A stretch of DNA of 64,000 bases from Tubiluchus corallicola (lineage: Eukaryota; Animalia; Priapulida), in NCBI GenBank assembly GCA_030141605.1, contig JAQGDQ010000086.1, positions 305,418 to 369,417 on the forward strand. Reading direction: 5' to 3'. Below, piece by piece: positions 3,001-6,000 of this stretch. The notes under the pieces were generated by a model, which searched no databases, was not told the DNA's origin, and worked only from the letters and a program-made list of their open reading frames with translations. The translations under genes and the position numbers were made by a program. Every line of letters starts with the position of its first letter. The stretch's first letter is position 1.

Positions 3001-6000
3001 TTACTTTTTGTTTCTTGCATGAATTGCTCCTTTGTGCACCTGTCTCCTGTACTGACTTGAACTTCTGTTGTGAAGTTGAATCGTCTAGTGTCGTGACACC
3101 AGGTATACGATCTTTTGAAATATTCTCTGTTTGCATTTGTTTTGTGTTAAGTGTTCCCTATATTCGTTCATACTGCATTAATTGTTATTGTTGTTTTACT
3201 GTTTGCTTAATGCAGAAGTCATTTTTAAATGTGTACTAGTGCCTGTGCTGATGTTGAAGTCGTGGTTTATGTTTTAAGCAGCAGTAATGTTCACAGCCTT
3301 CCAATATTCCCTGCTCCATTTTTGTGTTCCTCTCTTCCACTCAGTAGGTTCAGTACTTCTTGCTGCAGTGGCAGTTTCTGCATTGTAGTAGTTGTACTTG
3401 CTTGCAGCACTTAGGTTATTAGCTTGCAGAACAGTCATTGTATTAGTTAGTAATTAACTATTTTTTGTTACTTTTTTAAACAGAGATTTTCTTGTTTATG
3501 TTCTTTCTGTTATCTCTCTGCTCAATACTTACAGTAGTCATAAATTGCCATGTAGATCCTTTTTTGTGTTTGTGCTAAAAGATATTATTAGGGCAGAAAG
3601 GAAACTAGATAATCAGTCCATTTGTTGCATTAGAGATCGACAGATAGGAATTTACAATTTTTACTTGTAGTAGTGTTTCTTCTTTCATATTATTTTACAT
3701 TTATTATTGCTGCCAAATTTAAGATTTTTTTCAAACATTTAAATTGCTGCTCCTAAAACTTTAACTAAACTTTCTTTAAAATGCATTACGTTTAAACATC
3801 TTTTACACATTACCAAAATGTGTACAGTGCTTGTCTTTAGACTTTTTATTCTAAGTAAAATTCCTTTGGGAAATTTTGTAGATATGCAGAACTTGGCGCC
3901 TGGTTAGAATTTTTAGAAGGAATAGATCACAAAAATCAGTAATATTAATGCTTTGGAGAATGGATGCGGGGCTGTTAAACTCTAAATTGGCAATACTATA
4001 GTTTGCTTCTCGTGGTTGGTAATTCTCTTACTAACTTTCTTTTTATCTATCTTTTTGTCGTGCACTCGTTTATTGCTGTCAACACTGTTTCTTACTCTTT
4101 TGCACGTCAGAGTATCGTCCGCACAACCCAGCAGAGGGAGACACGGAACAAATAAATGTGAAACATCATCGTCAGGAAAGCCTTACCGAGTTTTTCCCTC
4201 TTGGACAGAAAAAGATTGAGTATTTTTTCAGCTCGGATGCTAGGTGAGTGTGGCTGTGCTTTTAGCTTAATGTAATGCATGATGCTTTGTTATTTTGCTT
4301 GAACAGAGCGACGTGGCAGCGTGCGTGACTCCGTGTCCGAGGACCTGGAAACGTCCGCCTTTGAGTACAGTCGCACGGAGGACACGATTGGCTTCCGTCC
4401 ACTGGATGAGCATGAAGTAGAGTACTACTTTGCCTCTGATATGAGGTGAGGTGAAAGATGCTGTCCACATTCTTGTCACCAGTTAGGAGCACTGTGTTGC
4501 AGATGTTAGTTGTCACTAATCATGTTGTAGATTTGATGTAAAAAGATGTGTAATGTTTGTAGTGTTTAGTTTGAACACTTTGTTAATTCATTGCAAGCAC
4601 ACTGAGATGATGTATTGAAACTTAAATGTTTTAATTTTCATTTGCACAGTTTTGTGTGACCTCTAAATTTAATTTTAGCTTGTTTTCTTTCTATGTTTAT
4701 GTAAATAATCCAGTTATTATTAATGTTTCTTTTTTGTTTAAAGAACATCATGGTGTTAATATTGTTTTTATGCATGTGTTCACACAATTATGCACATTTT
4801 TTGTTATTTAGAACAAAGTTTTTGAGTTTTTAGCTTGTTTGTGGGCAGTAGTAGTGTTTAGTTTTAACTTCATCTTGTTGTAGTATAAAAGTCATCATGT
4901 GGTTAGTTATTGTTGATAACAGAAAGGTTTACTTAGCCATAGATCATTTCTCACTAAAACATTTCTTAAGCATGCATTTCTGAAGTCACTAAGAAAGTAC
5001 TAAGATGATATACCATGTTGGCAGCTATTTGTTGTTCCAAATTGTGCAGAATTCCCTAAAAGCAAACATAGACCTGATGATGCAAATGCTTCATTTTTGC
5101 TTTGTGATGAACTTGAGTGATTGTTATTGTCAACATAACAAAAAGAAGTTTTGATTGACAAGTGTTGATCAGTGGCAATGGAAAATAGTAATTAAGGCAG
5201 CGTCTATATCATTTTTGTCCAGCATACAGTTAACATTTTTATGTTGTTTTCTGTGAATTTATCCAGTGCATATGAGACATACTTAACAACATCAACATGC
5301 AGTAGCATTGTTTTGTGGCAAGCTCTGGTGTACTAGAACCGCGTTTCTCTTCTTCTCACTTCCTCACAGCTTAGAACAGTTCAGTAAGGTTGAAGTTTTC
5401 TGCAATGTTAGATCCTGCATCAGATGGATAGCTAATTTGTTCTCTCTCTTTCCAGACAGCACCAATTGATGCGTTTGCAGTGCCTAATCACTACAGCAGG
5501 CATTTTTATTTAGTTCCTTTTGTTTTTGCAAGCCCCTTCTCACCTTTTCTTTTTTCCTCTTCAACTGGCTTAGTTGGGAATGGGATGACTTTTTATAAAA
5601 AATGTTGCTTTTTGTAAGGTCATTGCCCCAGCATACGCACAAAATGCTGTGCAAATGACTAAGCCCTGTAACCTTATTGATTCTTGCTTTTTCTTAAGTG
5701 TATAAATGTTTTTTAACAGGTTTACATGTTCAACTGTAATTTCACAGTTGATATTAAAAATTTGCAATTCTGAAACTATAGACATTTAAATTGTGCGTAA
5801 CCAGCTTAGACTTGCTAAAATTATTATTTTGTCCCTTGTTAATTACACCTCTGCATTGTTGCAAAGCTTCTCAAGAGATTTAATTGCTCATGCACTTCTT
5901 GCTGCTTGATGTCATTGAATGAGGTTAGTAGGTGCAACTGTCTACCTTGCTAAACCAGTTGCTACTGGATACGTCACCACCTGCTGCTGCGTTTAGAAAG

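Follow-up and report, generated by a model that had tools for sequence, protein, structure and literature searches.

Human GFAT1 carries a phosphorylation site, Ser243, that is a target of AMPK and CaMKII. In the 64,000-nucleotide stretch of DNA analysed here (the window), a GFAT gene contains two neighbouring, similar exons, A and B, of which A encodes a Ser and B an Asp at the position equivalent to Ser243. The locus thus raises the question of whether alternative splicing exchanges the kinase input of this rate-limiting enzyme, as a sequence-only reading of the DNA had claimed. Our analysis confirms a paralogous tandem pair whose reading frame permits only single inclusion, and supports the conclusion that A and B are alternatively used and under purifying selection in a relative. 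On what this choice does to the protein, we lean modestly towards a model in which it replaces about 44 loop residues and in so doing probably trades the Ser243-type AMPK/CaMKII input of A for inputs of PKA type and acidic-kinase type predicted in B.

A tandem pair of loop exons in a GFAT gene

Of an animal GFAT gene on the + strand, the window contains the 3' two-thirds, from an exon that ends at 48 to a stop codon at 15620 or 17348 (Table 1). The exons between 931 and 15620 give 488 open codons with 74-79% identity to animal GFATs, and the encoded protein has the layout of a eukaryotic GFAT (EC 2.6.1.16), with a glutaminase domain followed by two SIS domains and a C-terminal LAKSVTV loop; the window does not reach the N-terminal catalytic Cys. 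Identity is highest, at 83% over trimmed columns, to a centipede GFAT. In a GFAT tree the window protein falls in no well-supported clade, and a quick tree places it with a long-branched nematode (SH-aLRT 85). The gene ends in two paralogous last coding exons, each encoding LAKSVTV and a stop, in which the Cys of DCPR is changed to Gln and Met. The distal tail is matched by a loose end behind 14880 in a contig of the relative discussed below, and Patella and Mya GFAT isoforms likewise come in two C-terminal versions.

Table 1. Coordinates of GFAT gene features within the window
Feature	Position	Strand	Remarks
Exon U, constitutive, upstream	931..1010	+	With the preceding exon (donor after 48) encodes the Ser205-equivalent RRGS
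Microexon, 15 nt, frame-preserving	1234..1248	+	Placed between U and exon B by a contig of the relative
Exon A, ancestral-type loop exon, 133 nt	4111..4243	+	R-x-x-S kept; Ser codon 4179-4181
Intron between A and B, 63 nt	4244..4306	+	TGCATG (Rbfox-type) hexamer 4276-4281; candidate branch adenines 21-49 nt from the donor
Exon B, derived paralog, 139 nt	4307..4445	+	Asp codon 4381-4383; RRGS 4309-4320
Exon D, constitutive, downstream	8194..8264	+	Acceptor common to A and B
Proximal alternative last coding exon, predicted	15576..15620	+	C-terminal LAKSVTV motif and stop
Distal alternative last coding exon	17304..17348	+	Matched by a contig of the relative

Downstream of GFAT, open frames of 211 codons (20266-20901, + strand) and 224 codons (21791-22465, - strand) are followed by a Gln-rich, seemingly intronless open frame of 280 codons (23911-24753, - strand), whose terminal domain presumably resembles NF-YA. 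The translations of four neighbouring open frames were absent from the protein collection searched.

The coordinates, lengths, common phase (1 to 2) and spacing that the sequence-only reading had assigned to A and B all proved correct, as did its codons for the Ser, the Asp and B's RRGS, and the AG/GT sites of both exons are canonical. The motif EY[FY]F[AS]SD, said to end both exons, occurs twice on the + strand of the window, once in each. Joining U-A-B-D-E leads to a stop at codon 77, in keeping with the prediction that inclusion of both exons shifts the frame, and U-D-E, with neither exon, stops at codon 28; U-A-D-E and U-B-D-E contain no stop and keep the GFAT frame. A and B are adjacent, paralogous, of equal phase and of similar length, as expected of a homologous mutually exclusive pair. 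They agree at 10 of their final 25 residues, with nucleotide identity of 57% over the last 30 positions against 41% over 133, and the 63 nt between them compare with 223-3748 nt for the remaining GFAT introns. Because each exon carries the loop together with the conserved EY(F/Y)F(A/S)SD stretch, one copy is always needed. A is more similar than B to the homologous segment in 25 of 27 comparisons, which marks B as the derived copy. No third copy of the exon stood out in the window, and a duplicated penultimate exon was not found there.

The two had been called linker exons, a misnomer, since they encode a loop and a strand that belong to the glutaminase domain. UDP-GlcNAc is contacted by the actual interdomain linker, a different segment (Gln307 and Gln310 in human GFAT1), and we therefore refer to A and B as loop exons. 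In the crystal structure of human GFAT1, both S235 and S243 are found in extended loops, and the model lacks residues 228-239. HMMER places the A and B peptides without gaps on residues 237/239-263 of solved human GFAT1 chains, with E-values of only about 0.6 owing to the short queries, and in this register A's Ser and B's Asp both fall on human Ser243. A guanylate kinase match to B (E 0.46) was dismissed as chance.

Use of both exons and selection in a relative

Evidence on splicing comes from one contig set (X2), from a single sample of a relative that is 90-99% alike to the window and whose RNA status is our guess; among the runs listed with matching sequence none is recorded as RNA, and the X2 pieces listed cover exons only, joined at GT..AG edges. 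Another run, X1, covers introns and is free of joints at A and B, so we treated it as DNA and kept it out of the splicing evidence. Separately, its depth of 500-2800 at about 11270-12860, within the GFAT introns, points to a dispersed repeat.

In X2, one contig joins A to D (depth 83) and another joins B to D (depth 50.6), so that each single-inclusion form is present in the likely RNA contigs of the relative, an animal other than the window's own individual. These are the joints 4243 to 8194 and 4445 to 8194, two of those by which the sequence-only reading had proposed to recognise alternative use. On the upstream side that proposal holds less well, as B is entered through the microexon and not directly from 1010: a 30-letter loose end before 4310 matches, in order, the last letters of U, the microexon at 1234-1248 and the first letters of B. 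The junction into A has a coverage of only 3 letters. Neither an A-to-B joint nor a U-to-D double-skip joint occurs among the X2 pieces listed; contigs lose rare forms and cannot show absence, so the missing A-B joint does not by itself prove exclusivity.

Differences between the window and X2 suggest that both exons are maintained. The two exons show 20 differences; among the 13 listed, all six in A and six of the seven in B are silent, an excess over a transition-only null (binomial P 0.001 and 0.009, respectively). The 30-letter loose end adds four further silent changes, one of them in the first Arg of RRGS. Against the concern that one exon might be unused or decayed in close relatives, both exons are joined to D in this one, and 12 of the 13 listed differences are silent. 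B's Asp is unchanged in this one relative, as is nearly every residue, and its retention is for that reason no specific test of its role.

Two deflationary explanations bear on these data. In one, the X2 contigs would come from two gene copies or two organisms with one exon each, which we consider barely credible: the A contig does differ from the window by 2 letters in the shared D part where the B contig differs by 0, and the next contig begins at 8216, implying a variant near 8215, but 8215 is the third base of its codon, as expected of an allelic difference, and an allele is the simplest explanation. Moreover, the X2 pieces listed provide a single contig for each downstream exon, and A and B sit together in one gene of the window with their splice sites intact. 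In the other, B would be a mere second working copy of an essential exon, its loop differences the product of drift. The loop is hypervariable among animals and the site has been lost repeatedly, as drift would lead one to expect; the changes listed in B's variable first half (4341, 4344 and 4353) are, however, silent throughout, and both forms reach good depth in a single sample, making this explanation very unlikely. Alternative use of two selected exons is the conclusion that we carry forward.

The microexon through which B is entered, like the two alternative last exons, had gone unmentioned in the sequence-only reading; it has splice sites and would add five basic or Ser residues. Its score is the best among 112 candidates, although it was itself in that score's training set, and no further microexons stood out in the window. 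Arthropod and mollusc isoforms, too, carry short insertions at the intron that houses it.

To place the pair among animal GFATs, we searched with a constitutive exon and used the best 120 of 4050 matches, adding isoforms from clusters (15 members each from the four largest, of 36, 37, 19 and 16). A survey of 61 proteins in 10 isoform sets, and of the 47 anchor-bearing members among 71 in 10 clusters (one member counted in both), found no second paralogous version of this exon among the members listed. The variation surveyed consists of insertions upstream of a single exon version or of point differences, and in ticks, spiders, insects and molluscs the length of the loop varies through cassette insertions at this intron. 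Searches for homologs of the exon peptides, which are weak at such query lengths, gave four candidates for B, none of them scoring, and none for A; a HMMER search with B over 1.84 billion representatives returned one match, rejected as a 1481-aa tandem-repeat artefact. No orthologue of exon B was found beyond X2. On the proteins compared, the exon pair is apparently lineage-restricted, and no account of it was found in the literature searched, which lay mostly outside subscription journals.

The Ser243 position and the kinase motifs of the loop

The claim that A's Ser and B's Asp occupy the Ser243-equivalent position is upheld by 33 of 34 comparisons, in which a gapless register for B scores best. 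The exception is the centipede GFAT, the nearest homolog, where a one-residue gap wins and is also picked by tblastn; in that register B's Asp moves to a conserved acidic position at -1 and B's Thr falls on the phosphosite. Only exon A has a Ser243-type site, that is, a Ser with Arg at -3, where B has Asp. Around the lost site B has Tyr at -5, Arg at -3 and Phe at +4. The AMPK consensus has a hydrophobic residue at -5, and A, with His at that position, fits it only in part.

Other animals vary at this position. Among 27 distinct homolog motifs, drawn from 119 of 154 anchored proteins, 19 have Ser here, four have Glu, three Thr and one Asn. Glu occurs in gastropods only (Patella twice, Lottia and Elysia), so acidity at this position does not by itself imply a designed mimic. 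A Thr at the Ser243-equivalent position, without Arg at -3, is seen in P0105, P0096 and P0007 (a centipede, a millipede and a centipede-grouping protein).

In its strong form, the sequence-only reading proposed that B's Asp is a hard-wired mimic of phospho-Ser243, through which splicing locks the phosphorylated state. The gapless register and the flanking kinase-motif residues kept in B are consistent with this, as is a review according to which GFAT1 is more highly expressed and more stable when Ser243 and Thr244 carry phosphomimetic changes (PMC10138107). We nevertheless judge it distinctly improbable. Glu or Asn stands at the site in 5 of the 27 distinct motifs and Thr in a further three, the nearest homolog favours another register, and A and B differ at 15 of their 25 final residues, so that a single residue cannot be singled out. 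Reports on the effect of Ser243 phosphorylation on GFAT are themselves in conflict (PMC8041777). B's Asp is best read as one acidic residue of a loop that is acidic overall, in which the phosphosite has probably been lost, rather than as a dedicated mimic.

A second element of the earlier proposal was that exon B's RRGS provides a PKA input. The motif is indeed present, but the RRGS that is regulatory in humans (Ser205) lies in shared exons: in the window it is formed by 47-48/931-940, and both isoforms therefore keep it. B's additional RRGS stands at the start of the loop, roughly at the position of human Ser235, whose phosphorylation seemingly leaves activity unchanged (PMC8041777, PMC10138107). 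The proposed swap of kinase input thus survives in part, in that A keeps R-x-x-S while B loses it and gains RRGS, and is tempered by the common Ser205 motif and by the apparent inertness of Ser235. RRxS is rare, occurring in 3 of 147 distinct homolog loops; one insect-like isoform, P0229, has RRGS at the same spot by way of an insertion absent from its cluster mate. B also has more acidic residues than A (12 versus 7) and more S/T-x-x-D/E motifs (four versus one).

The same comparisons allow a reading independent of phosphorylation, in which exchanging the exons would adjust kinetics, feedback inhibition or stability by altering the loop's length and charge and the start of the strand that follows. 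The difference in acidic residues fits such tuning, as do differences between A and B at the conserved core end and the cassette insertions noted above in arthropods and molluscs, which vary the loop's length, and there is a precedent in GFPT1-L, whose mammalian muscle exon appears to act in this way (PMC10514471). On the other hand, B retains Arg at -3, Phe at +4 and, through silent changes, a full RRGS, and RRxS is rare among homolog loops. We regard purely structural tuning as unlikely, and retain a modest preference for exchange of kinase inputs. Isoforms that differ only in the loop and are both selected offer a clean comparison on whether Ser243 phosphorylation activates, inhibits or stabilises GFAT.

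Control of the choice and comparison with known systems

We propose that exclusivity is likely enforced jointly by a short donor-to-branch distance, with candidate branch points 21-49 nt from A's donor, and by NMD. The threshold for such steric interference has been put at about 50 nt (PMC7969005). In C. elegans, introns of about 40 nt are spliced, as a minimum (PMC4165533); since 63 nt exceeds this, the steric block is not assured if splicing here is rhabditid-like. The frameshifts of the double-inclusion and double-skip products are observed, and we infer both the steric block and the removal of these products by NMD, on which 14 of 19 non-3n mutually exclusive clusters depend in C. elegans (PMC4165533). 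Other mechanisms left little trace: no outstanding inverted repeat indicative of competing RNA pairings of the Dscam type was seen among the 25 longest of 142 pairs in this one species' sequence, and the local fold gave no signal of an RNA-structure mechanism (z = -0.44).

As for regulation, the Rbfox-type hexamer that follows A and precedes B (at 4276) might favour A and repress B where the factor is expressed, as Rbfox-type control with like placement is described for egl-15 and unc-32 (PMC3585155). TGCATG occurs 7 times on the + strand of 1011-8194 against 3.3 expected; over the whole window it is not enriched (50 seen, 55 expected), so a lone hit in a 63-nt intron is only a lead. One could go further and picture a switch in which a setting made by kinases becomes a setting made by splicing, with Rbfox controlling the choice between the Ser243-equivalent and an Asp mimic plus second PKA site, and with the microexon and the two C-terminal tails yielding a combinatorial set of GFATs from one gene. 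We think this composite model unlikely; were it true, the exon pair would be a natural experiment on Ser243 phosphorylation.

Splicing in this region of GFAT has a well-described counterpart in mammals. Inclusion of a 54-bp exon in GFPT1 lowers Vmax about twofold and the Ki for UDP-GlcNAc about fivefold (PMC10514471), from which it follows that splicing here can matter. Like that exon 9 (GFPT1-L or GFAT1Alt), whose inclusion is Rbfox-enhanced, the pair lies near the end of the glutaminase domain, where splicing alters regulation; unlike it, a mammal-specific cassette, the pair duplicates a loop-plus-strand exon with the Ser243 site included (PMC10514471). The microexon at 1234-1248 is a closer counterpart of GFPT1 exon 9 than the A/B pair is. 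Crustacean GFAT likewise comes in many isoforms, as described in shrimp (PMC8002005), and for Litopenaeus GFPT2 one mutually exclusive event was called by rMATS, with the exons unnamed in the part of the report available, so that it may concern this pair or upstream microexons (PMC10379218). Together, these cases suggest that animals have repeatedly placed this loop under splicing control, through cassettes in mammals, arthropods and molluscs and through whole-exon replacement here.

In its mechanism, the pair resembles vertebrate OGDH exons 4a/4b, also duplicated mutually exclusive exons that form a regulatory switch in a rate-limiting enzyme, with branch points within about 50 nt (PMC7969005). 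For OGDH, a Ca2+-binding motif was shown experimentally and the branch points were mapped, whereas kinase input and branch point are predicted here (PMC7969005). C. elegans homologous mutually exclusive pairs offer a further parallel, with exons of about 134 nt, lengths that are not multiples of three and, as proposed here, exclusivity backed by NMD; the sterically blocked introns there are shorter than 40 nt, and neither gfat nor F07A11 occurs in the main text of that report (PMC4165533). In Drosophila, the AMPK site is kept in one of Gfat1 and Gfat2 and seemingly absent from the other, much as in A and B, although that split arose by gene duplication and this one by exon duplication (PMC8834284). 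The pair is an apparently lineage-restricted case of a familiar mechanism and not a new kind of system.
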